From: a virus
Length of the DNA stretch: 64,000 nucleotides
IMG/VR virus record: IMGVR_UViG_3300030104_003872
Location: 1 to 64,000 of that record
Direction: 5' to 3' (one strand)
Shown in pieces: positions 5,891 through 46,034 of this stretch (positions are counted from its first letter, which is position 1; every line of letters begins with the position of its first letter). The notes beneath the pieces are model-generated. The model worked only from the letters and a program-made list of their open reading frames with translations, did no database searches and was not told where the DNA came from. The position numbers and the translations under genes were made by a program.

Positions 5891-6249
5891 CTGACCAAAG
5901 GGACTGCTCCTTCATCCTCCTCACCTCTAATAAAAGCAAGCAGGGGTACTATTTCTTCTGAAAGAAGTTCCGAAGCATCACATTGAGTACCATCTTCAAA
6001 CTTTCCAACACATAGGGGAACAAGTGTTCTAATCTGAGAATCTAATCCTGCTCCGTACTCTTCCACCATATCGAAGAACTCGTCTTGTTGCTCATCGGTC
6101 CAATCAGCAGGGCTATTGCCAAAATGTCGGCATTTACGAAGAGCTTTTGCGTGTGCCGTTTCTAGTGGTAATTTTTCAAGACCGGATGCTTGACGTACCC
6201 AGACCTTTTTTCCGTTATTTAATTCAAACAATTTACTTTTTATCGGCAT
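5887..6249 (-). CDS. Tail assembly chaperone 'G'
   Basis: 120 aa acidic protein between tail tube and tape measure; ends just after an X-XXY-YYZ heptamer. Confidence 0.75.
   Translation of the reverse strand: MPIKSKLFELNNGKKVWVRQASGLEKLPLETAHAKALRKCRHFGNSPADWTDEQQDEFFDMVEEYGAGLDSQIRTLVPLCVGKFEDGTQCDASELLSEEIVPLLAFIRGEEDEGAVPLVR
5896..5902 (-). other. Putative programmed -1 ribosomal frameshift site (C CCT TTG)
   Basis: Minus strand reads GTC CCT TTG GTC AGA TGA; a -1 slip gives CCC TTT GGT CAG ATG AGT..., the frame of 5627-5890. Confidence 0.7.
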
Positions 6250-6517
6250 CTTTCTTCACACTCTTCTTTGCTTTACTTTTCTTTTTAGGCTTGGCTTCTG
6301 CTTTCGCCTTCTCTTCAACCTCTTTCTTCAAGGCCTCTAACTCTTCCGCTTGTTCTTTGTCCATCTCAGCAATAAGTTTATTGTATCTTGCTGGTCGACC
6401 ACCGGATAATTTGTATAGACGCTTTTTCTCGTCCATCTCGAACTTTCTTGAACCCCCTCTAATAGAAGGGTCGTATTTATTATGCTTATTATTCTTTACC
6501 ATACTTAACCACCTCAT
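6233..6517 (-). CDS. Small Lys/Glu-rich hypothetical protein
   Basis: ORF coupled to neighbours in the tail operon; basic C-terminus; true start probably the internal Met (MVKNNK). Confidence 0.6.
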   Translation of the reverse strand: MRWLSMVKNNKHNKYDPSIRGGSRKFEMDEKKRLYKLSGGRPARYNKLIAEMDKEQAEELEALKKEVEEKAKAEAKPKKKSKAKKSVKKDADKK

Positions 6518-29813: not shown

Positions 29814-29939
29814 GTGCTAGTGTGCGACTACTGTCAAGAAACGTCTATCTCCGCTCCTTATATGACTCATGACATTTACTTAAAGACATTGGGACTATGC
29901 CCCGTATGTGGGAAAAACGGAAGTGTAAGAAATGTCTGA
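29814..29939 (+). CDS. Small Zn-ribbon protein (41 aa, not in ORF track)
   Basis: GTG start; CDYC...CPVC; overlaps the terminase start. Confidence 0.5.
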   Translation: MLVCDYCQETSISAPYMTHDIYLKTLGLCPVCGKNGSVRNV

Positions 29940-31434
29940 TATACTAAGAGGATTTAATTTAGAGCGTTCAAGAACAGATTTTAAGCATTTTTATGAATGG
30001 GTTGGTTATGTTTGGGGCGACCACATAGGCGAATGGGATAAATTGTATCGTGATAGGCAAGAAGCCAATGTTCACCGTGTTTGTATCATTGCTCCGCGTG
30101 ACCACAGTAAGTCAACAACCTTAAGAATGGTAATGTTGCATCAATGCCTATTCAATACATGGCGAGACAAGCCTTTTACTATATGGTTGTTCTCTGCGTC
30201 TAAAGAATTGGCCGCTAACAGGCTCGAAGAAATACGAGGCGATATGATGCGTCATAGAGAACTTAGAAAGTTTATTGATATGCGAAGGGGTGGAAAACTT
30301 AACTTAAGATTCACAAATGGGGCATGGATTAAGGCTACCGGTATAGGTTCTGCTATTCGTGGTGAACATCCGGCTTGTATTGCTATGGATGACGTACTCG
30401 ATGATACAGGAGACATTACCCCCGAATCCACTAGGCATTGGTTTAGAAAAAAGATAACACCGATGCTTTCTCCCGGAACTTGGATGTATTGTGTCGGCAC
30501 ACCAATGGGAATGACTGATTTATACCACACCGAAATGCTAGAGAACCCTGCTTGGAAAACATGGCTCGGTTCTGCTTTCCCCAATTGGGATGAATGGAAG
30601 TCTGACCCCGATGGTGTGGATTTAGAATGCCTATGGCCGGAACATCGGTCACTAGACTTCTTGATGGAACAAAAACAGGCTATGGGGGATTTAGCATTCG
30701 TACAAGAATATCTTTGTAAGGTTGTGGATGAAGATGCTCAAGTTTTTACTAGGTACGATACGCGAGCACACTTAGAATCAACCGATATAATGATGACAGG
30801 TAAAGAATTAGATGGAAAATACGCCATAGGCTTTGACCCTGCACATGGATTGGGAAGAGACTATTCTGTAATGGTTGTTGTTAGGCAAGATAAGGATGGT
30901 GACCTTCATGTTGTTGATTTATGGAGACGTAATGATTTTCCCCCTGCGAAGCAGGTCGATGAGATTTTGTCTATGTGTAAAAAATATGATAATCCGGCTT
31001 TTGCTTGCGAAGATGCGGGATTCCAAAGGCTCTATGAACAATTATTGTTAGAAAGGGGGGCAATGGTGGACTTTAGACCTTCTAAGGTAAGTAATAAGAC
31101 ACTAAAACAGGCACTATTGAATAGGTTGCGTGTTTGGTTTGAACAACAGAGGATTCACTTTCCATTTGGGGATGATAAAACTAGAAGAAACATGAACATC
31201 ATCTTAGAAGAATTAGACCACCATGTATGGAAGCAAGGCGAGATTATGGACGTTGGGAGACACAACGATACAGTAATGGCTCTTGCACACGCAGTTGACC
31301 AGTTTTATTCGTGGGATAGGGGAGCACCTGTTGCTACCGGAAAGATTGAATCAAGTGGTTGGCTTCGACCGGATGGTGAATCTAAAGCACCAAGATATAG
31401 CAGACCGCAGACAGGACGCTACCGCATACTTTAG
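29932..31434 (+). CDS. terL: Terminase large subunit
   Basis: Walker A APRDHSKST, IRGEH..IAMDD Walker B, VGTP motif III, QEYLC, RNase H-like GFDPA..DYS and HNDTVMA. Confidence 0.95.
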   Translation: MSDILRGFNLERSRTDFKHFYEWVGYVWGDHIGEWDKLYRDRQEANVHRVCIIAPRDHSKSTTLRMVMLHQCLFNTWRDKPFTIWLFSASKELAANRLEEIRGDMMRHRELRKFIDMRRGGKLNLRFTNGAWIKATGIGSAIRGEHPACIAMDDVLDDTGDITPESTRHWFRKKITPMLSPGTWMYCVGTPMGMTDLYHTEMLENPAWKTWLGSAFPNWDEWKSDPDGVDLECLWPEHRSLDFLMEQKQAMGDLAFVQEYLCKVVDEDAQVFTRYDTRAHLESTDIMMTGKELDGKYAIGFDPAHGLGRDYSVMVVVRQDKDGDLHVVDLWRRNDFPPAKQVDEILSMCKKYDNPAFACEDAGFQRLYEQLLLERGAMVDFRPSKVSNKTLKQALLNRLRVWFEQQRIHFPFGDDKTRRNMNIILEELDHHVWKQGEIMDVGRHNDTVMALAHAVDQFYSWDRGAPVATGKIESSGWLRPDGESKAPRYSRPQTGRYRIL

Positions 31435-31637
31435 AATATGTACCATATTAGTAAAAACATACAGTCAAACCAAATGAAAAGCCAAATTAGGTCGTCTATC
31501 CAATCATTTTCCCCCATGTCAATGAATCTGAGGAACCACTTAGGTATTTTCATCAAACAATGATGCGTCCATAGAGCATATAGACTTATCTTTATAATGT
31601 CACTCCGAAAAAAATTAGAGAAAACTCTCGTAGGCAC
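31431..31637 (-). CDS. Possible small hydrophobic protein
   Basis: Trp/Phe-rich C-terminus; convergent with terL; start uncertain. Confidence 0.3.
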   Translation of the reverse strand: MPTRVFSNFFRSDIIKISLYALWTHHCLMKIPKWFLRFIDMGENDWIDDLIWLFIWFDCMFLLIWYIF

Positions 31638-31876
31638 TAGGCGGAGATATATGGGCTAAATGCGTGATTTATGGCCTTCTATTATATACTAAGGCCGTAT
31701 TTCACCATTTGCTGATATCGGATATTGGTGTTGTCCTTCGGGGCTTCGGACGAAAGCATCTGAACATAACAGGCTAGAATTAGCCTTCCGAATGCTTTGC
31801 CGGACACAAGATGGAAGGCGAATGGAATAAACAAACCAATCGGGCAAATAATCAACATCTGAAAGGTGAAGAAGCA

Positions 31877-32314
31877 ATGGCTAAGGCTAAGGCTAAGGCA
31901 CTATATCAGATGGATGCGGAAGAAGCGATTGCTTCGTTCAATAGTACCCGTGCTGACAACAGTAAGGGATTGGGCAAAGCAATAGTGCATAAGCCCCGAA
32001 TGCGTAAGGCATCCGGCAGTCATGTTATGATTGTTGATTTGTCTAAACTGCCTAAGGGAAGCACGGTTGAACACCATCTAGGCTTGGCAACAAGTAAGGT
32101 GAATGGGAAACCTGCTAAATATGCTTGCGTGTGTCTAACACACAATAGAAGCGTACTATGCACAACACGCCATCAGGCAACCTTCGGGGCAGTCTTTACT
32201 GCCCTTAAGGACGCTAGGACACCGAAGCAACTGATTCAGTCTAAGGGATTTACCCTAACTGATGGAATCGGTTGGTGTGATGGTTGTGTGAAGGCTTCAT
32301 TAGCATCTGTCTGA
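31877..32314 (+). CDS. Small basic Cys/His protein, paralog family member 1
   Basis: Start MAKAKAK after AAAGGTGAA; CVCLTH...WCDGC; distant similarity to 33403, 34261 and 41112 proteins. Confidence 0.75.
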   Translation: MAKAKAKALYQMDAEEAIASFNSTRADNSKGLGKAIVHKPRMRKASGSHVMIVDLSKLPKGSTVEHHLGLATSKVNGKPAKYACVCLTHNRSVLCTTRHQATFGAVFTALKDARTPKQLIQSKGFTLTDGIGWCDGCVKASLASV

Positions 32315-32498
32315 AATGTGTCTTGCCACTATTAGGTGAAGTGGGCTTCCGTAATATGCTAGATATGTATGCGTCAATGAACAGTCAATCAGACTAACCA
32401 AACGATACCCAAGATTAGCACCTGTACAGGATGGATTTCAATGGCTATATCCCGCCGTTAAATCCTGTATAGTTTGAAGCCCCTTCCCACACGAAACC

Positions 32499-32651
32499 AT
32501 GATTTTGAAAAGGTATTTTATTGAATGGCGTGATGGAACAATAACCGAAATTAGCATTGATGAATTGAAGCGATTAGATGAATCAGGATTCCCGAAATCC
32601 ATGCTTAATTTCATGGAATATCGGGCGTTTAGGAAGTGGTTGAAGGATTAG
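32499..32651 (+). CDS. Small hypothetical protein (50 aa, not in ORF track)
   Basis: MILKRYFIEWRDGTITEISIDELKRLDESGFPKSMLNFMEYRAFRKWLKD*. Confidence 0.55.
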   Translation: MILKRYFIEWRDGTITEISIDELKRLDESGFPKSMLNFMEYRAFRKWLKD

Positions 32652-32700
32652 GCCGAAAGGCCACCTTCTTCCCTTTTTTTTGTGTTTTTTCAGATTTTTT
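32651..32700 (+). terminator. Hairpin plus long T-tracts
   Basis: GGCC-GAAA-GGCC followed by three runs of 6-8 T. Confidence 0.65.
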
Positions 32701-32738
32701 GAATCTACCGCATAAAAGATGGTTAAAGCCTTCGGTCC

Positions 32739-32835
32739 GCCCCTGTGAGAGAACAAAGGTCCGGAGAAAAAAGGTCAGGAGAAAAAGGTCTGGAGAAAAA
32801 GGTCACGCTGACAAAGGTCAGCCCCTGTGAGAGAA
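32739..32835. repeat. Tandem AAAGGTC(N)GGAGA repeats flanked by direct GCCCCTGTGAGAGAA copies
   Basis: AAAGGTC occurs five times in 32755-32819 at ~14-15 nt period; the 15-nt flank occurs at 32739 and 32821. Confidence 0.85.
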
Positions 32836-32890
32836 AACACGAGACGCCACCCATGATGACGCCTCGCTTACGTTAGTCCTCTGTCTCGAT

Positions 32891-33079
32891 TCAATTCATC
32901 TCAACAAGTGTCTGAATTAAGCATTGCTCCAGTTGTTGCGGGGTCATCTCTGCGTTTATGCCGAGGTCTATTGGTGTTCTCACTAGAGTTGTTATTACAC
33001 CTTCCTGACGCCCGTCGTCTCCAACGACTGCGTGTTGCACGATTTTCGCGGTCACTTCTCCTATCTTTATTTTTCTCAT
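32891..33079 (-). CDS. Small hypothetical protein
   Basis: Own TATA (TATATATA ~33135) and GAGG RBS. Confidence 0.55.
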   Translation of the reverse strand: MRKIKIGEVTAKIVQHAVVGDDGRQEGVITTLVRTPIDLGINAEMTPQQLEQCLIQTLVEMN

Positions 33080-33402
33080 TTCATTTCCTCCTATGGGCTT
33101 TCCGCCCTACCTCCTCATGGAAGCCATAGTATATATACTTTGTGTATTTACGACCTCCACCTGAGAACTCTTTCTCGGCTCGGGGTGAGGCCCCCAAAAA
33201 GTAGTGTCGGGGAGAGAGAGGCTCGGGGAGAGGCCCTAAAAGACGCTCTCTCGCCCGGTCCGCCCCCGAGTAGGCGTTTGAGTGCGAGTCGTGATGCCAG
33301 ACCGCCCCTCCGAGATGTCGTGGCTGAGTCGTACGTTTCTCCGGAGACCGCAATGTTTATAACCCCCTACCCCTACAGCGAGGTAGGCCAAGAGGCCGGG
33401 AG

Positions 33403-33750
33403 GTGAAAAATCTGGAAACTGAGAATTACTGGGAGAACTGCGAGAGAAAGACAGGAGCGGCGCTCGGAAAGTTGGGAGTCAAGACCGCCAAGAGTATTGG
33501 CGTAAAAGGAGCATGGACTCTAAAATACCGAGGCAAGGCAAAAATACTCGTTGGTTGCATGAGGAGAGTTGAATCCGAGTGGGCTGACAAGAGTATTCTG
33601 AACGAGAAAAAGGACAGAGTTGCTGAGCACGTTACAGTCTGTGAGCACGGAGTGGCAGTTGGAGCATCCACGAGAAAGGTTGCGATAGAGCTGGCTAAGA
33701 AATCCGAGCACTGGTGCGAGAAGTGTGCCGCGAGAACCGCCGTCCTTTGA
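33403..33750 (+). CDS. Small basic protein, paralog family member 2
   Basis: GAWTLKYRGKA..VGC..HVTVCEHG..VGASTRKVAIELA...WCEKC. Confidence 0.8.
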   Translation: MKNLETENYWENCERKTGAALGKLGVKTAKSIGVKGAWTLKYRGKAKILVGCMRRVESEWADKSILNEKKDRVAEHVTVCEHGVAVGASTRKVAIELAKKSEHWCEKCAARTAVL

Positions 33751-34260
33751 GACGCGACGTAAATCCAATGACCCCCGAAAGGGGCGAGGATGTACTCTCT
33801 GGGGTCACGACTCTCTAGTATTGAGGCTCGACCCTATTTGCACAAAGGTCGGGGGGTCACGACTCCGCCCCTTCTCGACCCTAAACGCACAAAGGTCAGA
33901 AGCCTCCGGGTCCGCCCCAGAGAGAGAAGGCTCGATTCTCACTCATCTTAACCCCTAACCCGAGAACTCGAGCGTTTCTCCGTGTGCGGGCGGGCGAGCG
34001 AGTACTCAAATGTATGACATAAAAGGACCCTGAGCCGACGGGTCACGCCCCACGACTCACTGCTCATCACGACACGCATCTCAGGAGAGGAGCACGTTTT
34101 TTTAGTGGGAGCACAGGTCACCAGAGCCCCCCTACTCTACACGAGCGGACCCTAGAAGGCTTGAGCCCCTCAGGAATCTCGTGGGTGATGAGCTCCGGCA
34201 GGTATTTCTCCCACCAGAGCCTTTACGTCATCTCGAATAACTATCTCGGGGATAGAATAC

Positions 34261-34668
34261 TCAGACGCTCGCATCCTTGATGCTCTGTCTTGATTTCTCA
34301 CACCAGATGTGAGCCAGTTTGCATAGCTCGATTGCTTTCTTTCTCGATGATGCTCCCATCACTGACCCATAGTCTGTGACCGCAACATGAGTTGGTGCAA
34401 CCATCTCGCCATTTACGAGAATGGTCATGCCTTTGGTCGCTTCGGTAACTTGCTCATCCGCGTTCTCCACGAAAATGCAACCGACCCGACATCCAGCCTT
34501 CCTTCTCATCTTCAAAGTCCATGCTCCGGCTCTTCCGATGGTTCTCGCAGTCTTGGCTCCGTCCTTGCCGAGATGTGCTCCAGTTGAAACTGTTGCTCCA
34601 TCCCAATACATGGTCGGGGTTTTCTCTGCTTTACTGCTCTTCTTAGTGCTCTTACTAGTTTTGCTCAT
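34261..34668 (-). CDS. Small basic protein, paralog family member 3
   Basis: GAWTLKMRRKA..VGC..HVAVTDYG..MGASSRKKAIELC...WCEKS. Confidence 0.8.
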   Translation of the reverse strand: MSKTSKSTKKSSKAEKTPTMYWDGATVSTGAHLGKDGAKTARTIGRAGAWTLKMRRKAGCRVGCIFVENADEQVTEATKGMTILVNGEMVAPTHVAVTDYGSVMGASSRKKAIELCKLAHIWCEKSRQSIKDASV

Positions 34669-34902
34669 AAAGTTCTCCTCCTTGTCTCCAATACGTGTCT
34701 CCGAGTCACGGTAAGGTTCTCATTCAATGTCATTCTCATCGTCCGCCCTACATGACCAGATAGAAGTTATAGGATATAAAGTTTTCGGACTCTTGAGTTA
34801 GACCGCCCTCACCGTGAGAGTAGTGGAGAAGTCGTAATGTTTTCACTCGAGTTGTCGATGCCTACGTAAAAGAGAACAGGGAGGCAATTCTCCGCCCCTG
34901 TC

Positions 34903-35331
34903 TCAATCTCTTCTAGTTTGACCATATAGCCGAGATTCAAATGCTTGCTCGGCTTGTTTCTCTAGTCTCTGTACTTCTGCGTGCTCGTCAATTTTCTCTA
35001 GTACCTCTGCCACATCTTTCTCGGCCTGTCTCTTATTGTATATCTCCCAAACTTTGTCGGTTACGTTTCTCTTAACCATTTCTCCGAAGTGTCTCCATTG
35101 TCCCTCGTTTATGATATCTCTAGTCTTGTCATCAGTCAATGACCCAAGACCCATGTGTGATAATTTCTCCATTAGAGAATCTATTACGACCGGACTGTCA
35201 TGGAGTTTATCGTACTCTATTGAGTATATTTTGTCTATCTCATTTATTGTGAGTACGTCATCGGTATTTCTCCGGAGGTCTAATCTCCAACCTCTGCTGA
35301 AATAGGTCCATTTTATCTCAGAGTATGACAC
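34903..35331 (-). CDS. Hypothetical protein
   Basis: 142 aa ORF downstream of a boxed promoter. Confidence 0.6.
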   Translation of the reverse strand: MSYSEIKWTYFSRGWRLDLRRNTDDVLTINEIDKIYSIEYDKLHDSPVVIDSLMEKLSHMGLGSLTDDKTRDIINEGQWRHFGEMVKRNVTDKVWEIYNKRQAEKDVAEVLEKIDEHAEVQRLEKQAEQAFESRLYGQTRRD

Positions 35332-35478
35332 CTATCTCCACCAACAGTCGAAATGTTCAGGCTCAATCGTTTCCTTCTCGGACTTGGTGGCTCCTTTCTT
35401 AACGAGAACCACTCGCCCCTTAAAGAGTTTATTAGCCAACTCTTTTGTTATCTCATATTCATTACTTCTCAATTTCAT
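35332..35478 (-). CDS. Small hypothetical protein (48 aa, not in ORF track)
   Basis: MKLRSNEYEITKELANKLFKGRVVLVKKG...FDCWWR*; AGGTGA RBS; first gene after the 35551 promoter. Confidence 0.55.
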   Translation of the reverse strand: MKLRSNEYEITKELANKLFKGRVVLVKKGATKSEKETIEPEHFDCWWR

Positions 35479-35672
35479 TTCTCTATTTCACCTTTCCTCG
35501 GCCTTCCGGCCTACTCTGAGGATGGAAGTCATAGGATATAAACATTTCTGACTCTTGAGTTGTCGCGTGTAGCGTAATAATTTACTCGAGTTGTCGATGA
35601 CTACACAAAAGGTCTTGCTCTTGACGACTCCGCCCCAACTCTACCGCGTGAGGCAAAGGGGGTATCTCGCAA

Positions 35673-36485
35673 TCACTCGTAATGCGGAGAATCCGCGTAC
35701 TCGTAAAGACCAGTTATAGGTTCGACCTTATAGAAGTGCTCTTTTGCACAGACCCATCCGGTCGGTGTATATCCCTCGGGATAAGTCGAACTAACTGTCT
35801 CGTCACCGCCTAGAGATTCCCAATCCGGCTCCCATTGTGCTCCATTCGCTCGCCTGTCTTTTATCTCTTGTAACCATTGTATTCTCTTAAGTTCTCTGAG
35901 AACGGCATAGGCTTCTCGGAATGTATTAAGTGGTCCGAGGAAAGCATCGTGGCTCACAATAGAGCGATACCATCCGCCCTCCTCTGGTCCGCCGTATGCT
36001 CTTACTTTCTCGTACCTGCTCACATATATTTGGTCGCCGTGATTCTTCTCCCAATAACCTTCCTCGGGGAAGAAATCGTACTCACCTTCTTTGAGCAGAT
36101 ATAGTTTCTCCATACCTGAGCCAGCGTAATGCCATCTCTGATAGTCCCACTGCTCTTTGCGGTACTCGTAAAGTGTAACGAGCCAGTCGCCGTTGATACT
36201 CTGATATTTATCTCCTATTCGCTCAGGAAGACCATTTTCGTCTTGTTCTCTGCAATATTGCTCAAACGCCTGTTGCTCAGTCTGATGTCGAATTCTCTTC
36301 TGCTTGTGCTCACGCCTTGACTCGCTATGCTTTAGGTCATAGACCCAAGCACGAGTGGATAGCAATGTTCTCGCTAAACCGGTCAGTTCTGCATTCTCTT
36401 CAAAACTTCTCTTTTCGTCGTATAATTCTTTCTCTTTCTCGTAATCTGTCATATTTTTCTCACCTCCCTTATGGTCTGACTCCAT
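35673..36485 (-). CDS. Hypothetical protein (Tyr/Trp/Glu-rich)
   Basis: Contains YGGPEEGGWY motif; probable start MTDYEK. Confidence 0.65.
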   Translation of the reverse strand: MESDHKGGEKNMTDYEKEKELYDEKRSFEENAELTGLARTLLSTRAWVYDLKHSESRREHKQKRIRHQTEQQAFEQYCREQDENGLPERIGDKYQSINGDWLVTLYEYRKEQWDYQRWHYAGSGMEKLYLLKEGEYDFFPEEGYWEKNHGDQIYVSRYEKVRAYGGPEEGGWYRSIVSHDAFLGPLNTFREAYAVLRELKRIQWLQEIKDRRANGAQWEPDWESLGGDETVSSTYPEGYTPTGWVCAKEHFYKVEPITGLYEYADSPHYE

Positions 36486-36503
36486 TTCATTGTATTCTCT
36501 TGA

Positions 36504-36860
36504 TTATAACTCATTAACTGCATCTCTTAATTCGACTTCATTGGCTATTCGAGTTGCTTCTCGATGTGCCTTTAATCTCCGGATGTAACTCCTATCTTCT
36601 TTCTCTAATGTATCGAACTCTTCACCTGCGAATCTCGCATAGTTGGTCAATAATGCGTGGAGATTAATACGATGCACTCCGCAACTATATCTCATTAGTT
36701 TTAACGAGTGCCTATCTCCCTTCATGGGAGATGATTGCATCTCTAATAGTTCGACCTGTAAGTCAAACTCTTTCATTTTCTCTAGTAACTCTTTCTGTAA
36801 CTCAACTGCTCTAATCATAGAGTTTATGAGTTCCATTTCTTCATCCTCCGTTTCCGCCAT
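36504..36860 (-). CDS. Hypothetical coiled-coil protein (leaderless)
   Basis: ATG about 23 nt after the TATA of the boxed promoter at 36898. Confidence 0.65.
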   Translation of the reverse strand: MAETEDEEMELINSMIRAVELQKELLEKMKEFDLQVELLEMQSSPMKGDRHSLKLMRYSCGVHRINLHALLTNYARFAGEEFDTLEKEDRSYIRRLKAHREATRIANEVELRDAVNEL

Positions 36861-36989
36861 GTAGAGGTATAGGGGTTCTAGGTATTAAACCTTTCTAACT
36901 CCTGAGTATCCTCAGAGAATGATAGATTTACTCGAGTTGTCGATGGGTTGGTAAAAGAGAATAGGATTGTGAATCTCCGCCCCACACGA

Positions 36990-37466
36990 CTAGTAATTAA
37001 AATCGGTCAGGGGAAAGTCATTCTCTTCGACTATCCTTTCGTTGTTCTCAAAGAACTTCCTCACATGCTCAAGACCTATCAGATGGGCTCTACCGGACTT
37101 ACTTCTATTGTCGATAACTGATGGGTCATCTGCAAACTGCTCGTTCAGTATGCTCAGATATAATCTCTTAGCCACATCATACTCTTGAGGTTTCCATAAT
37201 AAGACCTCTTCTGTCTCGACATATCTTTGCTCAGTTCTAAATCGAGTGTTGATTCGCTCTAATTGCTCATCATCCATGATTTCTCTGCTTCTGAGCAGAA
37301 TAAAACCATGCTCATGATGACCTAGTTCCTCGTCATAACTCTTATTCACAGACCATATTAAATCTCTTAATTCAGATTTCTCTTCACCAGTTCTGCTCAT
37401 CCATGAACGAGCAAGTGATTGTGGTGTCGTGTGTCGCCACTCTGTACGTGACCTGACCAAAATCAT
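36990..37466 (-). CDS. Hypothetical protein
   Basis: 158 aa ORF in a minus-strand cluster. Confidence 0.55.
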   Translation of the reverse strand: MILVRSRTEWRHTTPQSLARSWMSRTGEEKSELRDLIWSVNKSYDEELGHHEHGFILLRSREIMDDEQLERINTRFRTEQRYVETEEVLLWKPQEYDVAKRLYLSILNEQFADDPSVIDNRSKSGRAHLIGLEHVRKFFENNERIVEENDFPLTDFNY

Positions 37467-37546
37467 CCTGTCCTCTGATATTTTATACTCGTATTCGTCT
37501 ATCTCTATTCACCTCCTTTAGACTCCAAATCTCCCATCTATGAATC

Positions 37547-37885
37547 TCATTGCAGAGAACTTTCCTTCTCTTGCTTTTGCATCTCGTACATCATCTTTCT
37601 CCCTTCTATACGAGCCTTCCACATAGAGATACCAAAACTCATTGCTTGTTGTCTCTTTTCCATATCCTCATCAAACGGGTCCATACCCATTCTCGCGGGT
37701 AAGACCATAGTGGCGTCGCATAAGTCGCAACATCTCGAATCGAAATCTTTTGGGTCAGCAAGGAGTGGGTAGGGATTATTACCCATGTATTCTCCGGTCT
37801 TGAATAATAACTCGTTGGTATGAGGGTGTCTTGGTCCCTTAATCTCTTTCTTACAGAGACAACACTTAAGATTACTCTTCCTCAT
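37547..37885 (-). CDS. Zn-binding hypothetical protein
   Basis: CCLC...GNNPYPL...RCCDLCD. Confidence 0.65.
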   Translation of the reverse strand: MRKSNLKCCLCKKEIKGPRHPHTNELLFKTGEYMGNNPYPLLADPKDFDSRCCDLCDATMVLPARMGMDPFDEDMEKRQQAMSFGISMWKARIEGRKMMYEMQKQEKESSLQ

Positions 37886-38069
37886 CGTTGATTGCTCCTT
37901 CTAATAGTCGTCGAATGACACTAGGGTCAATAGCAGACTCTTTGATAAGAGCCATAAACTCTTCGGCCGTTTGACCTGTTGCTACCGTTTCGCCTGTCTC
38001 TTTGCTTACAACTCTGAATAAAGGAGCATCCGCACCCGCATTCTCTGTCTCTACATCAATTACGGTCAT
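37872..38069 (-). CDS. Small acidic hypothetical protein
   Basis: Coupled to 37885 gene; GGAG RBS. Confidence 0.55.
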   Translation of the reverse strand: MTVIDVETENAGADAPLFRVVSKETGETVATGQTAEEFMALIKESAIDPSVIRRLLEGAINDEEE

Positions 38070-38390
38070 ACTTATGCACTCCTAGCCTCATACTGTTTTT
38101 TGGTCAGTCCATACCTTCTCAGGTAATATTTGTCGTTCATCTCTTCAATCATATTTCTCATCTTGTTGCTCATCTTCTATTCGCTCCTGTTTCATGTGGG
38201 CTCGCCACGCTAATATCTCTATATGTATTTTACTCATCTACTTTCCTCCTTATCCTTAAATACTCATGGCAGGGCTCGCAAAGAGTTGCACTCTCACCTG
38301 CCCGACCTGAATGGAAATCAGTCGGCATATTACCGACAACCCACCATGACTCGGCATGGAATAAGTCGTCACCACATTGGTCGCAATAGG

Positions 38391-38522
38391 TCATTCTAAA
38401 TCATACTCCTCATATACCCACTCTGGGGTTTCTAGTCGAAACTTGAATCTGGTCACCAAGAGTTTATTCCGTAGTCGGGAATACTTAACTCGGGTGATGT
38501 TTCCATCGTCGCCGTCCGCCAT
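38391..38522 (-). CDS. Small hypothetical protein (43 aa, leaderless, not in ORF track)
   Basis: MADGDDGNITRVKYSRLRNKLLVTRFKFRLETPEWVYEEYDLE*; directly after the 38560 boxed promoter. Confidence 0.5.
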   Translation of the reverse strand: MADGDDGNITRVKYSRLRNKLLVTRFKFRLETPEWVYEEYDLE

Positions 38523-38715
38523 ATCTACCAATTATCGTCTTAGGATATAAAGGTTTTGGACTCTTGAGTTATGGTGTATTTTAACTCGAGTTGTAGGTTA
38601 TAGTAGTAAAAGGTTCGGTAGAGCACTACTCCGCCCCAACTCAAGAGTTGGAAAGGTTTATATTCTAGTTAGATGATTCCCTCATGTAGCGGAAGCACAG
38701 GAGACATCAGATAAA

Positions 38716-39417
38716 ATGAGTGAAAATGAAAACAGAGTAATTGAACAAGAGACAGAGCGTGAAGCAGGTAAGAGTATAACCCTGACCTTCACACCTATCG
38801 GAGCAATCATAGATTCCGAGAAAGAAAGCAAAGTACAAGAGCAAGATGAAAATGCAGACCTGTTCTTTATGAGAAGTATCAACACGACCTTCGGGTTCAA
38901 GATGTTGAGAAACTCATGGGATAGTGAGCACGACATCAAAGCAGGAGCAACTGAGACTAATACCAAGAGTACAAATGGACTAAGAATCGGAGATACAACC
39001 GTGACGAGTTTCATAACATCAGAGTTGGAGTGGTTCAAAGAGGCACTAATGCCTCTGCTTATCGACCAAAGTGATGTGGAGATAATCCAGACCACTAAGG
39101 AAGAGATAGTAATAGTTGAGCCACTAGGCAGATACGAGCACTTCGGTTGGGACGAGACACCAGAGTGGGCTGATGAAAGAGTAACCCTCGAATACATCGA
39201 CCTTCGTAATGGTAAGGCCTCTATTCTCGTACAAGGCGAGACAGGTTCTGACCTTCAAGGGGATGAGGTGAACGAGGCAGTTAAGGGCTACCACGATATG
39301 CTTATGAGTACCATCAGAAGTATGACCTGCACAGACGAGAATGAATATAGCAGAGATTGTAAGAGTTTGCTTAAAGTGGAGTCTCATAGAGTTTGCGACA
39401 CATCCTTCTTGAATTGA
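38716..39417 (+). CDS. Acidic hypothetical protein
   Basis: 233 aa, Glu/Asp-rich; boxed promoter at 38639. Confidence 0.7.
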   Translation: MSENENRVIEQETEREAGKSITLTFTPIGAIIDSEKESKVQEQDENADLFFMRSINTTFGFKMLRNSWDSEHDIKAGATETNTKSTNGLRIGDTTVTSFITSELEWFKEALMPLLIDQSDVEIIQTTKEEIVIVEPLGRYEHFGWDETPEWADERVTLEYIDLRNGKASILVQGETGSDLQGDEVNEAVKGYHDMLMSTIRSMTCTDENEYSRDCKSLLKVESHRVCDTSFLN

Positions 39418-39535
39418 GTTCTTTGGGGGAGAGAACTTCGTAAGCCTCGGCGTGGGTAAATCTCACGCTGAGGTGAAACATCTTATGCTCTCAGTAGGAG
39501 GAACGATAGGATGACAGACCTGAAACTTCGAGGGG

Positions 39536-40735
39536 GTGATGAGAATGTCAGATGAAAGAGGATTAATACCTTACTCTAACAAAGAAGAGATGATTCTCGC
39601 TATGCAAGATTTGTCGGATGAAATGCTTAAGGTAGGTCACGATAATGTGGAAGAGTTCCTAGCACTCGTAAAACAAGAGATGTGGGATAGAGAACACGCT
39701 ATGGTGGTCACATACAATGAAGAGTTCAAAGAAAAGTGGGCTCATGTATTCGACTTATTTAACGAAGGTTGGTCTATATTAAGAGAACTATACCAAATAT
39801 GCGAGGACTATGATGGAGATAATAATTTTATCACAGAGAAGAATGAGCATCCGAATTATCCTCATTGCGAGTTAGAAAAGGCTTGGGTCGTAAGATACGA
39901 GTCATTTTTAGCAAGAGCAAAAGATATGCCTAGTCGTGGTTATACACATGAGGGACCATATGGAACTCTAGTATTCAGAGAAGAATATCTAAAAGAGTTG
40001 GATTTAGAGTCTTATTGGGCGACTACATATTCAACGGAGATAGCAAGGAGATTGGAGCCTAAAGAGAAGGACTTAAAGTATGGTCTTACTTTTGCTCATT
40101 ATCCTACAGACCCTTTCAAAGAGGAAGAGGAATACATCGAAGATTGGAGCAGATACAAATATGTTAGAGATACTAAGATAGAGGCCTTTGATAAAGTCGT
40201 ATATTTCTTGAGAAATGTTATGGTTAAGTCGGAGACAAAGGATATAAGACCTTCACAAAACGACGATTGGAAAACCAATGAGCTCAAACACTATAATCTC
40301 GAAACACATCAGTTAGAGAGACCTTTAGAGTGGAAGATAATAGAGGATGAGCAGATAGTGGGTGCTATTTACGGTAGAGGTAGGAGCGATAATAAATATG
40401 CGACTTGTTTCGACTGTGATGAAAATGGTCGAAATAGATTAGCCGTGAGAACATATTACGAGCGTGGGTATCAAGAGATGCCAGGAGCTCCTGTTCATGC
40501 TACATGCGAGTACTTTACTTGTATGAGATGTGGAAGTGAGCGTAAAGGTGGAGAACATGGAGATTTCCCTGTTGGTGGAGTTGACTTAATAGGTCAGCCA
40601 CTCTTTGCAGGTATGAGCACAGAAGAAGTATGTCGTCAATGCTCATGTTATACTACCAAACAGTACGGTGGTAGCGGAGAACGAGGAAGCGATAGGGAGT
40701 GTTGGGCTTGCTATGGAGAACCCGGTCATTACTAG
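39536..40735 (+). CDS. Hypothetical protein with C-terminal Cys clusters
   Basis: CFDC, CMRC, CRQC and CWAC motifs. Confidence 0.7.
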   Translation: MMRMSDERGLIPYSNKEEMILAMQDLSDEMLKVGHDNVEEFLALVKQEMWDREHAMVVTYNEEFKEKWAHVFDLFNEGWSILRELYQICEDYDGDNNFITEKNEHPNYPHCELEKAWVVRYESFLARAKDMPSRGYTHEGPYGTLVFREEYLKELDLESYWATTYSTEIARRLEPKEKDLKYGLTFAHYPTDPFKEEEEYIEDWSRYKYVRDTKIEAFDKVVYFLRNVMVKSETKDIRPSQNDDWKTNELKHYNLETHQLERPLEWKIIEDEQIVGAIYGRGRSDNKYATCFDCDENGRNRLAVRTYYERGYQEMPGAPVHATCEYFTCMRCGSERKGGEHGDFPVGGVDLIGQPLFAGMSTEEVCRQCSCYTTKQYGGSGERGSDRECWACYGEPGHY

Positions 40736-41111
40736 ACAGGTCTGGTGGTAGAGATACCGCCATTCCTCTCACTCTAAGATAAAAGAAAAGAGCGCTCCTC
40801 TCTCCGCCCCTTGAGAGAAGAAGGTGGTGGGTCTAGATTGCAGTATGCCTACCCAGCAATGTCTCCCCGACCCACCGAAAGGAGTATTAGGTGGAGGCTT
40901 ATCCGACTTGTTACCGCCTGTTTTAGACTCACTTCCTCGTTGCATTTCTGCCTCTTTCGAGATAAGGGTAGTGTGCGGCTCGGTTACGGTTTGGTCTACC
41001 ACCTGTTTATGTAGACTCGCCCCCTTTTTGTATGCTCCGTCATGTACCCGTTCTCATGGTGGACGGAGCCACACCATGTGGTCGTTTCGTGCGGAAGAAC
41101 GCTCGAATTGT

Positions 41112-41591
41112 CTAAGCAGTCGCTTTAACTTCTGTCTCTGTGACTTCTGTCTCAGCCTCTGCCGTTGCTTTAGCCTCTTCCTCGGCTTTCGCCTTAGCCT
41201 CGGCTAATTTCTCCACTATCTTTTGAGCCTTGTTGCTCCATGTGGCCGGATGTCTCGCTAGTTCGAGTGCCTTTTTCCTTGAAGTTGCTCCGTGCTTCTG
41301 GAGAATCTTCATTTTTAGGTCTTTTGCTCCCTTTTCGTGAGTTCCTGTGATAACGACTGTATGCTTGTCTGGTCTGTTACAGATAGGCTCGTCAGATGCC
41401 TCGGTTAAGTAAATTCTCACTTGCATACCTCCAATCTCCTGACAACCCTTCTCACGCCACAATCCTCTGATGCCGTAAAGGTCAACATTAGAGTGTCCGT
41501 GTGTTTCTGTATCTCCCTTAGACCACTTTGGGATAGGTTTCTCATCTTCTGTGGTCTTTGATTCTGATTTAGTCTCTTTCTTTGTGCTCAT
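41112..41591 (-). CDS. Small basic protein, paralog family member 4
   Basis: HTVVI...HGATSRKKALELARHPATWS; Ala/Glu/Lys tail; GAGGTGA RBS; boxed promoter 41674. Confidence 0.75.
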   Translation of the reverse strand: MSTKKETKSESKTTEDEKPIPKWSKGDTETHGHSNVDLYGIRGLWREKGCQEIGGMQVRIYLTEASDEPICNRPDKHTVVITGTHEKGAKDLKMKILQKHGATSRKKALELARHPATWSNKAQKIVEKLAEAKAKAEEEAKATAEAETEVTETEVKATA

Positions 41592-41884
41592 AACATTTCA
41601 CCTCCTCGGGGTTTCGCAGTCCTCCCGCTTCGCATATCTACAACTACATTTATCTAGTATATATAATGTTCTAACTCTTGAGTTGTGCTTGAGTTGTAGC
41701 CTACTGCCTTACTACTAGAGTAGATACTACGCGTGTAGTGAGTGAGTGCTCTTATTATTGGTAAAAGATTCGGTAGAGGTATTCTCCCGCCCGTAACTCG
41801 TGAGATGGAAACATTTATGTGCCGTCAAGATATATTAGTAGATATGTACGGTACGACGATAAGTTTTACACAGGAGGCTGAATA

Positions 41885-42313
41885 ATGAAATGCGAGGCAA
41901 TGGGGTGCGACAGCGAGGCTACGCTTATGTGTCACCAGAGTTACTTATGCGAGGGTTGTGGTGTTGAGATGGCGAAGGCGACAGGCCACGATACTCAACC
42001 TATTATACTGTCGTCTGTACTCAAAACTATGAGTGAAGAAGAAAAGGAGTTTCTTGACCCACTTACTGTTCTTGTCGATGACGAAGAGCATGACCACCGC
42101 ACATTTGATTTACAAGATGTCGGTACAATTGACCACATAGTACCTACTAATGGTTTGACCATATTCCATGAGCCTATTGTCATGGCGAGGTGCGTTCATT
42201 GTGAGGCATACGCTATCGGTCATATCAACAAGGTAGGAGGTTGGTTCGCGAGACACCAACACTACCACACGCACGCAGAGGCAAATGATGACGACTTTGC
42301 CATGCCGTCGTGA
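41885..42313 (+). CDS. Cys/His-rich hypothetical protein
   Basis: C..GC...LCEGC; CVHC...HQHYH. Confidence 0.65.
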   Translation: MKCEAMGCDSEATLMCHQSYLCEGCGVEMAKATGHDTQPIILSSVLKTMSEEEKEFLDPLTVLVDDEEHDHRTFDLQDVGTIDHIVPTNGLTIFHEPIVMARCVHCEAYAIGHINKVGGWFARHQHYHTHAEANDDDFAMPS

Positions 42314-44571: not shown

Positions 44572-44801
44572 GAAAATACATAGATGCGACTTAGAGATTA
44601 TTGGTTTTGATTATGACCAAAAGAAATGGGAGGTCACAGAACACCTCCGATGTAAAGAGTGCGGTGCTAGAGCAACAAAGATAGTAAAAGAGGTATATGT
44701 TCTTGACTCTTACTCAAAAAATATTAAGACATAGCCGGTAGCGACGTCTACTTGACTCAAGAGTCAGCAATGTTTATATCCTAGTTTGATATTTTGGTAG
44801 T

Positions 44802-46034
44802 ATGGCGAAAGACGGAGGCTTCGGAAGAAGCATGAGCAAGGAAAAGCGTAAAGAGTTTGAGCGTCAACTTGCTGATGAGTTCATTGAGAAAATAAAAAGT
44901 GGCGATGTCGGTGCTTGGAGTTCAGGTTGGACCAACTTAGGAGGCAATACTATGCCTCATAATACAAAAGGTCGCCCATATAGAGGTATAAACACAATAA
45001 TTCTCTGGCTTAGAGGTTCAGATTATAACTCTAATACATGGGGTACTTATCACTCTTGGAAAGAGGTTGCGAGGAAACACGCAATAAAAGAGGGTAAGTT
45101 TGAGTTAAAAATCGGTAGAGATGGAAAACCATACAAGCATACGACTGAGTGGTATGGAGTAAAGCAAGGAGAAAGCGGTACAAGCATTATTCTCTGGAAA
45201 CCACTCACATACAAGAACGAGAAAACCAATAAAAAGACAGGTGAGATAGAAGAGTCTATCGGTATGACCATGTTAATGCGAGTATTTACAGTATTCAATC
45301 GTGACCAGACAGGATTACCTGAGATTATTACAGAAACAGAGTTAGAAGAAGCAGAAGAGTTCAACAGTAGAGAAAAACAATTAGAAAACTGCCTCAATTG
45401 GTACATTGAGAACCCAAATCGTAAGGTGGTCAAGACTGGTGAGATGCTAGTACATCCTCATCCGAAGGCAGGTGAGAAACATACAGGTGAAGACCCTATA
45501 TGGGTCGTAAAAGATGGTGATATTATTCTCAAACACGGCGGAGATAGAGCGTTCTATACATCTAGCAGAGATAGGATAGCACTTCCTCTTCGTGAGCAAT
45601 TCAAAGAAAATGCGAGATACCTATCTACTAAAGGGCATGAGATTATCCATAGTACAGGTCACCCACTTCGACTTAATCGTGCTCTTGGTAATAGATTCGG
45701 GAGCGAAGATTATGCTAAGGAGGAATTGATTGCCGAGTTCGGTACTGCCTTTCTCATAGGCTCATTCGGCATACAGGGAGAACTTCGTAATGTTGAGTAT
45801 ATCAATAATTGGGCTTCGGTCTTGAGTAAAGAACCTAGATTCCTCATTACTGCGGCTCAAAGAGCACAAAAAGCAGTTAATTATGTACTCGAACCTTGGG
45901 TAGAACACGAGGCATGGCGTGACCAAGAAATAAATGACTTAAGAGAATATCTTGAGGGCAAAGAAATACAAATTACTCCTATGGGTCTTAACAGATTACA
46001 CGGAGATTTATCAGTTATGGAGGAAGAAGAATGA
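44802..46034 (+). CDS. ardC: ArdC-like antirestriction protein (DUF1738 ssDNA-binding + zincin-like domain)
   Basis: YRGIN.IIL, WGTY..W, VFNRDQT, AFY....DRIALP...F, HEIIHSTGH..RLNR, YAKEELIAE. Confidence 0.85.
   Translation: MAKDGGFGRSMSKEKRKEFERQLADEFIEKIKSGDVGAWSSGWTNLGGNTMPHNTKGRPYRGINTIILWLRGSDYNSNTWGTYHSWKEVARKHAIKEGKFELKIGRDGKPYKHTTEWYGVKQGESGTSIILWKPLTYKNEKTNKKTGEIEESIGMTMLMRVFTVFNRDQTGLPEIITETELEEAEEFNSREKQLENCLNWYIENPNRKVVKTGEMLVHPHPKAGEKHTGEDPIWVVKDGDIILKHGGDRAFYTSSRDRIALPLREQFKENARYLSTKGHEIIHSTGHPLRLNRALGNRFGSEDYAKEELIAEFGTAFLIGSFGIQGELRNVEYINNWASVLSKEPRFLITAAQRAQKAVNYVLEPWVEHEAWRDQEINDLREYLEGKEIQITPMGLNRLHGDLSVMEEEE

Follow-up and report, generated by a model that had tools for sequence, protein, structure and literature searches.

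The viral DNA considered here raises the question of whether four small genes lying between positions 31877 and 41591 are copies of one another and, if so, what kind of protein they encode and on what that protein acts. The stretch, called the window below, comprises 64,000 nucleotides (positions 1 to 64,000 of the IMG/VR virus record IMGVR_UViG_3300030104_003872, which holds 75,290 bases and was judged complete). We call the genes A (31877-32314, + strand), B (33403-33750, + strand), C (34261-34668, - strand) and D (41112-41591, - strand). An earlier note on this DNA had taken them for four divergent paralogs of a small basic, partly zinc-binding protein. Our analysis supports an expanded, unclassified family of predicted zinc-knuckle-type domains, to which three of the genes belong by alignment and A probably belongs as well. 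A copy of the domain is inserted in ribosomal protein uS3 of a few archaea, and this insertion is the most informative and most surprising feature of the family.

We read the window as part of a magrovirus, a tailed virus of Marine Group II (MGII; Poseidoniales) archaea, because it encodes an RFC-like clamp loader, because its relatives are found in IMG/VR and because the cellular proteins that share the domain come from Marine Group II archaea. This class of virus has been described previously (PMC5434244, PMC11706807). The hosts of magroviruses, the Marine Group II archaea, are plentiful in surface oceans, and no culture of them has ever been obtained (PMC5434244), so that the function of magrovirus genes must be deduced from sequence.

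Relationships among the four proteins

All four open reading frames were confirmed at the coordinates above, and their translations contain every motif that the earlier note had quoted. A encodes 145 amino acids, is the first gene 3' of the large terminase gene (29932-31434) and ends in ASV. B starts with GTG and encodes 115 amino acids, including a full Cys-His-Cys-Cys (CHCC) site plus C52. The product of C (135 amino acids) has a Lys/Ser-rich N-terminal tail and also ends in ASV, and that of D (159 amino acids) is rich in Lys, Thr and Glu in its N-terminal tail and in Ala, Glu and Lys in its C-terminal tail. The computed isoelectric points (pI) were 9.86 for A, 9.49 for B, 9.76 for C and 8.42 for D, against 4.9-7.5 in five neighbouring proteins, in agreement with the description of the four as small and basic.

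The clear alignment reported for B and C was reproduced (E 3e-24, 45% identity over 105 amino acids). C and D matched at E 1e-7 (26% identity over 129 amino acids), and the similarity between B and D was limited to the stretch GA(S/T)SRK.A.EL...W (E 6e-4). A profile lacking all D-type sequences recovered D from 6,149 frames with 22.5 bits (E 4e-5) and zero false hits, which together with the match to C places D with B and C. These alignments indicate that B, C and D are true paralogs. Close relatives of C are P0005 (92%) and P0007 (61%), and orthologs of D are P0010/P0032 and L005:18196-18699.

For A, the earlier note had claimed that the pattern is shared more weakly. BLASTP of A against B, C and D gave no significant match, as that wording implied. 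The alignment of the A family contained 17 sequences, all of 127-149 amino acids, from 15 database clusters and two related loci. When its profile was compared with that of B/C/D by hhalign, the two were collinear over about 80 columns, exactly on the four motifs that had been listed, with C-x2-H of A matched to C-x-H and W-C-x-G-C to W-C-x2-C. The scores with three pairs of alignments were 29.9, 33.3 and 24.4, and the column-shuffle nulls were 11.4+-2.4 (maximum 22.4, 0/300) and 11.2+-2.4 (maximum 20.3, 0/200). The nominal hhalign probability was only 12-60%, and the profile-profile score on its own is suggestive rather than proof of the membership of A.

These last figures leave room for another explanation, namely that A is an unrelated small Cys/His protein with B-like motifs acquired by convergence, which would reduce the set to three paralogs; A might then be, for example, a packaging or small-terminase-like DNA binder beside the large terminase. 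The non-significant BLASTP comparison and the modest probability agree with this, as do the drop in hhalign score after both alignments were enlarged, the fixed position of A after the terminase gene and its different regulation (it lacks the promoter box described below). No match of A to a small terminase (TerS) family was found in Pfam or PHROG. However, chance convergence would have to account for a collinear alignment with paired ligand motifs that scored above all 500 column shuffles, for the C-terminal A-[AS]-[VLM] tail common to A and the B/C types, and for proteins that match both the A and the B profiles.

The latter proteins come from L103, a fragment of a divergent magrovirus, which has three family members 3' of its terminase gene (3329-3892, 5280-5606 and 5998-6309). 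Its gene in the slot of A (187 amino acids) matched the A profile at E 3.6e-5 and the B profile at E 3.7e-4 over the same region. A second protein matched the B profile at E 4e-18 and the A profile at E 8e-3, and its ligand motifs, C-x-T-H and W-C-K-G-C, are A-like. One of the L103 copies ends in DEEE, as the cellular and fused forms do. Since these bridging sequences score with both profiles, they strengthen the link of A to B, C and D. We conclude that A, which represents a conserved ortholog group of its own with a remote link to the other three, probably belongs to the family and that an unrelated origin is on the unlikely side.

The C-termini deserve a separate remark. In the viral A-, B- and C-type proteins, all of them read A-[ASV]-[VLMT]-COOH (ASV, AVL, AAL, AAM; alignments A6 and A4), the corresponding positions in the window being 32303-32311, 33739-33747 and 34264-34272. 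D-type and cellular members do not have this end, and the cellular ends are often EEE. Among 271 frames of the window, an A[AS][VLMT] end was found in A, in C and in one antisense frame only, against 0.64 expected. The tail may serve for docking or degradation.

Metal-ligand site and conserved residues

We counted the putative metal ligands in a 27-row superfamily alignment of B/C/D that includes B and follows its numbering. C80, H82, C105 and C108 are all present in 21 of the 27 rows, B among them. Three C-type rows, including C of the window, are down to one or two of the ligands, and the three D-type rows have lost all four. In the window, C retains C105 alone, the other positions being T80, Y82 and S108, and D has none of the four while R91 and W104 are retained. 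C52 has been lost separately, in three of the rows that have all four of these ligands. Among the positively charged residues, R91 is invariant, K41 is nearly so and R43 occurs in 24/27 rows. In the A family, the corresponding set, C86, H89, C134 and C137, is invariant (17/17), and so are R98-H99 and the named residues of W133-C134-x-G136-C137.

The progressive loss of ligands that had been proposed is therefore seen, with the CHCC set complete in A and B, one Cys left in C and none in D. "Partly zinc-binding" is a fair description of these putative sites, which are best termed Cys-His-Cys-Cys. The metal looks structural rather than catalytic, because copies survive its loss: A and B have the complete site, little of it is left in C and nothing in D. 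With paralogs that range from a complete putative zinc site to no site at all, the family amounts to a natural experiment on the metal dependence of a zinc-stabilised fold.

Predicted fold and searches for known families

B was modelled with AlphaFold2 from an alignment of 22 sequences, which gave a predicted local distance difference test score (pLDDT) of 90.9 and a predicted template modelling score (pTM) of 0.82; an earlier model from a 5-sequence alignment (pLDDT 48.7) was unusable. The model contains a helix (22-32), two strands (37-43 and 48-54), a loop, two further strands (76-80 and 85-88) and two helices (91-99 and 106-114). The orphan domain, about 95 residues long, thus has the predicted order helix, beta-hairpin, loop, beta-hairpin and two helices. 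In the model, the second hairpin carries C80 and H82 at its turn, and C105 and C108 are found where the last helix starts; this Cys-His-Cys-Cys layout is the usual arrangement of a structural zinc knuckle.

Structure searches with the B model returned no solved relative. Foldseek found nothing in the PDB at E<=1e-3. The best Z in a VIA-align search of 48,161 representative chains was 4.1, for an unrelated MmoD chain; models that lack a clear match typically reach Z 7-8 with this program. A second VIA-align search reached Z 2.8. Matches in BFVD were limited to two unnamed viral proteins (A0A6M9Z4B2, probability 0.99, TM 0.50, E 0.1; A0A9E7QAM7, probability 0.93). Anti-CRISPR proteins were among the low-Z rows of the wide VIA-align search (Z 2.1-2.5) and were dismissed as noise. 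No known fold is detectable for the model, which does not by itself prove a new one.

Sequence searches with A-D had a similar outcome. A Pfam scan found no family at E<=1, NCBIfam no meaningful family (ribosomal families included) and PADLOC-DB 0 families at E<=0.1. The best PHROG matches were families of unknown function at E 0.03-0.5, and two ESM Atlas queries gave 0.76-0.81 to unnamed clusters, which is the chance level. The earlier note had not recognised the family, and neither these collections nor the solved folds supply a name for it.

Two candidates were considered and rejected. The archaeal single-stranded DNA-binding protein with an oligonucleotide/oligosaccharide-binding fold (NF005051) was matched by B across just 42 residues, with a score of 15 bits (E 0.019) where the cut-off is 235. 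The sole sequence match in the PDB was a chain of ribosomal protein eL32 (7pwg_e, E 1.1), which shares the local motif H-A-x-I/C-x-H-G ... S-R-K-x-I-x-E-A-K. Profile-profile comparison by hhalign of alignments A4, A2 and A3 with 34 archaeal eL32 sequences (PF01655) gave a score of 11.6, the level of shuffles (range 9-12), and probabilities of 0.1-0.2. eL32 was also absent among the rows with Z>=2 of the wide VIA-align search, an absence that does not in itself exclude it.

Structural zinc sites of the treble-clef or zinc-knuckle kind occur in small nucleic-acid-binding proteins. The present domain resembles them in having C-x-H at the turn of a beta-hairpin and C-x2-C at the start of a helix, in being small and basic and in the probably structural role of its metal. 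It differs from them in that C and D of the window lack the full set of four ligands, in that the searches above gave no solved treble-clef, zinc-ribbon or other domain as a match to the B model and in that the N-terminal helix and first hairpin (G-A-W-T-L-K-x-R) have no counterpart; zinc binding, moreover, is predicted here.

Distribution among viruses

The window combines a tailed-virus morphogenesis block with replication genes of archaeal type, among them those for the RFC-like clamp loader, for a superfamily-2 helicase and for an ArdC-like protein. Its relatives, contigs in IMG/VR, have terminases 54-91% identical to its own. Searches of the GenBank phage records with the region and with A, B and D gave no DNA or protein match, and the terminase found just distant phages there (24-26% identity); that collection appears to hold no close relative of the virus.

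An exhaustive profile search of 1.84 billion representative proteins yielded 12 clusters of the B/C/D type at E<=1e-3, one of which was a spurious match to a CAP-domain protein, and the A family comprised 15 clusters. Family members were found on contigs of 74-76 kb, which are therefore taken to be sibling viruses. Close relatives were defined by a terminase identity of about 75% or more. In 7/7 of their loci that extend at least 1 kb beyond the terminase gene, that gene is followed by one of the A type. B-type genes occur in all three close-relative loci with at least 2.5 kb downstream of the terminase gene, in two tandem copies in L112, and L005 also carries the D-type ortholog. Six loci with 54-67% identical terminases had no family gene within 3-10 kb downstream. 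In these searches, family members turned up in a narrow clade of magroviruses and in cells of Poseidoniales and nowhere else. The family thus offers a domain, folded with confidence in the model and unclassified, that is common only to one clade of magroviruses and their presumed hosts.

Insertion in uS3 and other cellular copies

In a few MGIIb archaea, a copy of the domain sits in the acidic C-terminal tail of ribosomal protein uS3 (P0013, 367 amino acids, in NCBI and ENA; P0021, a near-identical Tara copy; P0022, 379 amino acids, in NCBI). The uS3 part of the fusion proteins scored 252 bits against NF003219 (cut-off 147), and of P0013 the N-terminal part alone is uS3. The insertion is in frame and about 110 amino acids long. 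At L007:4001-4777, an MGIIb locus with a normal operon, uS3 is 98% identical to that of P0013, is free of the domain and ends in ...AEIEQKKEEE; P0013 departs from ...AGIES into the domain and ends in ...QEEE. Between the two fused forms, the uS3 part is about 80% identical and the domain less than half (an estimate from the alignment). Because of this difference, and because the fused copies group in the phylogenetic tree, the fusion fits one old, vertically inherited insertion rather than an assembly chimera, as judged from these alignments.

Stand-alone cellular copies were found in 5 of 401 Poseidoniales genomes. They encode about 101-105 amino acids, start with M-T-T-G (L061:1492-1809(-), L063:1498-1803(+) and L064:1438-1743(+)) and lie in three unrelated, ordinary chromosomal neighbourhoods, beside genes for phosphoenolpyruvate carboxykinase and a dehydrogenase E1 subunit, for an HxlR regulator and an aldo-keto reductase, and for a surface protein and a hydrolase. 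In the unrooted tree, a branch with support of 100/99 split the sequences into two clades. One contained the B and C types together with the uS3-fused copies, which formed a single group (87/88) within it; the other contained the D types, a viral group starting with M-H-G-G and the cellular stand-alone genes. Cellular copies thus occur in both clades, which argues for at least two exchanges between virus and host. The uS3 insertion itself marks gene exchange between the virus clade of the window and MGIIb.

Two known situations invite comparison. Virus-encoded ribosomal proteins such as bS21 have been proposed to act on the host ribosome (PMC6375957, PMC9723584). They are, like A-D, small, basic and virus-encoded, and in both cases a sequence link connects the virus with a ribosomal component of the host. 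However, those proteins are homologs of ribosomal proteins, whereas A-D match no ribosomal family and the domain is merely fused to uS3 in a few hosts. Ubiquitin-eS31 and ubiquitin-eL40 are ribosomal proteins with an extra fused domain. They share with the present case an accessory domain fused in frame to a ribosomal protein and an accessory family that occurs in viruses as well; eL40, too, has been reported in viruses (PMC11499249). Here, in contrast, the fusion is at the C-terminal tail of uS3, is restricted to a lineage rather than universal, and the domain has no known function or processing.

The charge and the fusion together suggest a function. Nucleic-acid binding is hinted at by the basic charge, by the invariant R91 and near-invariant K41 and R43 and by the Lys-rich N-terminal tails of C and D. 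Action on RNA or on the ribosome is suggested by the sole natural fusion partner found, uS3, a 30S protein at the mRNA entry site. The fusion directs attention to RNA or the ribosome and away from DNA motifs, and as a rare natural fusion it gives a concrete, testable hypothesis of ribosome or mRNA binding. We therefore tentatively favour, as a possible reading that leaves ample room for others, a nucleic-acid-binding module that would act on RNA or the ribosome during early infection. The domain would be a basic nucleic-acid-binding module, and the viral B, C and D would be made early and would act on RNA or, close to uS3 at the mRNA entry site, on the small ribosomal subunit. They would thereby bias host translation or mRNA handling in favour of the virus. 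The paralogs would have diversified and acquired different tails, and the role of A might be late, packaging-linked or other.

A bolder form of the same idea, which we regard as rather unlikely, would make B, C and D a new class of virus-encoded ribosome accessory factors that bind to the head of the archaeal 30S subunit, close to uS3 and the mRNA entry channel, and reprogram translation at an early stage of infection; some MGIIb hosts would then have captured a viral copy onto the uS3 tail as a domesticated regulator or as a decoy against the viral factor. If true, it would make the ribosome the site of a virus-host arms race, in archaea that rank among the most abundant of the surface ocean.

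Promoter class and alternative functions

B, C and D are each located downstream of a box of the form CTCNNGAG-N9-TWTATAW, of which the window has 7 exact sites (0 expected). The box of B (33339-33362, + strand) consists of CTC-CG-GAG, 9 nucleotides and TTTATAA, and ends about 40 nucleotides 5' of the GTG start. That of C (34774-34797, - strand) consists of CTC-AA-GAG, 9 nucleotides and TTTATAT, and AGGAGG serves as the predicted ribosome-binding site before the ATG. That of D (41659-41682, - strand) has CTC-AA-GAG, 9 nucleotides and TATATAT, and the putative ribosome-binding site, GAGGAGGTGA, is located 6 nucleotides before the ATG. Each of the three genes has a strong putative ribosome-binding site of the GGAGG type. 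The other four copies of the box, at 35536-35559(-), 38545-38568(-), 38640-38663(+) and 44756-44779(+), precede the genes 34903-35331(-), 38230-38394(-), 38716-39417(+) and the ArdC-like gene 44802-46034(+). A does not have the box and has just a TATA-like run about 190 nucleotides upstream. Among the relatives, the same box was found 5' of the B-type genes in L107 and L112 and of no A-type gene. The claim that each gene has its own promoter accordingly stands for B, C and D, through a shared box, and falls for A. By position and sequence, the boxes form a predicted promoter class of the early type, whose members are the ArdC-like anti-restriction gene, B, C and D and three further small genes.

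The earlier note had gone further and named the four proteins prime candidates for reading the GAG/CTC motifs. The only link that we found is the occurrence of CTC-NN-GAG in the promoters of B, C and D themselves, as in those of four unrelated genes, and this part of the claim was not upheld. The broader possibility behind it is that these are viral chromatin proteins or regulators that bind specific DNA sequences, with the CTC-NN-GAG boxes or repeated sites in the GC-rich spacers beside B and D as targets, and that they control the early regulon and themselves. Autoregulated early repressors are common in viruses, and palindromic boxes before B, C and D would suit a dimeric binder; B and D, moreover, adjoin long spacers of 51-57% GC, and the proteins are basic and have conserved Arg and Lys. 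The B model also showed a weak, non-significant resemblance to DNA-binding domains of the AP2/ERF type (6sy0_A, Z 2.9; 7wq5_B, Z 2.0), values that are within the noise. However, the searches revealed neither a helix-turn-helix or ribbon-helix-helix nor any other known DNA-binding fold, and since four unrelated genes lie behind the same box, its binder could be any of several products. The only domain fusion found joins the family to a ribosomal RNA-binding protein and not to a transcription factor. A profile-guided guess does not distinguish between binding of DNA and of RNA. We consider DNA-binding regulators somewhat unlikely.

The ArdC-like member of the promoter class bears on another alternative, in which the proteins bind other proteins for anti-defence or host takeover, as inhibitors or decoys, and the expansion of paralogs reflects an arms race with host defences. 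Co-regulation with this anti-restriction gene would fit such a role, and so would the small size of the proteins, the several fast-diverging paralogs with individual promoters and the narrow, patchy distribution in viruses and hosts; basic proteins could also bind the acidic uS3 tail or other acidic host proteins. This reading is nevertheless quite improbable in our judgement, since no match to PADLOC or to a known anti-defence family was obtained and since positively charged residues that never vary and tails rich in Lys are found more typically in proteins that bind nucleic acids.

In the marine metatranscriptome library X4, only two contigs fell on 31600-35400, both at least 99% identical to the window, at 33449-33656, within B, and at 34511-34732, which corresponds to the 5' part of C and its leader. 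They are a weak hint of transcription of B and C, and the parts of 31600-35400 without contig cover are informative neither way.

Several results weigh against the reading of the domain as a module acting on RNA or the ribosome. The uS3 fusion was seen in 0/46 uS3 loci of species-representative MGII genomes, and JGI metagenome contigs gave only uS3 tails without the domain, so that the fusion is rare and could be a tolerated insertion without functional meaning. The fused copy of P0022, furthermore, shows partial degeneration: it has lost the W-T-L-K strand motif and contains an insert of 8 residues. Sharing a promoter class with an anti-restriction gene would be just as expected of proteins with a role in anti-defence or transcription, and contigs of a metatranscriptome cannot prove transcription.

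Surrounding DNA and neighbouring genes

The spacers mentioned above (32652-33402, 33751-34260 and 40736-41111) are free of long open reading frames and have 51-57% GC against 42.6% in the window. They border B on both sides and lie downstream of D. Their conservation among relatives is limited to short pieces, and the first contains an open reading frame of 62 amino acids (32891-33079(-)). Scans of the window for tRNA genes and Rfam families returned nothing.

An acidic protein of 224-270 amino acids is conserved downstream of the family genes in relatives (35673-36485(-) in the window, L005:12543-13262(-) and L006:12931-13605(-)). It has an invariant Y-G-G-P-E-E-G-G-W-Y-R and a motif S-L-G-x-D-x-x-V-x-S-T-Y-P-E-G-[YF]-[IT]-P, and it matches no Pfam family. 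Other Cys-rich small proteins or domains with CxxC, unrelated to the family, are encoded at 37547-37885(-), 38230-38394(-), 39536-40735(+) and 41885-42313(+), and the early region as a whole is unusually rich in putative zinc-binding products.

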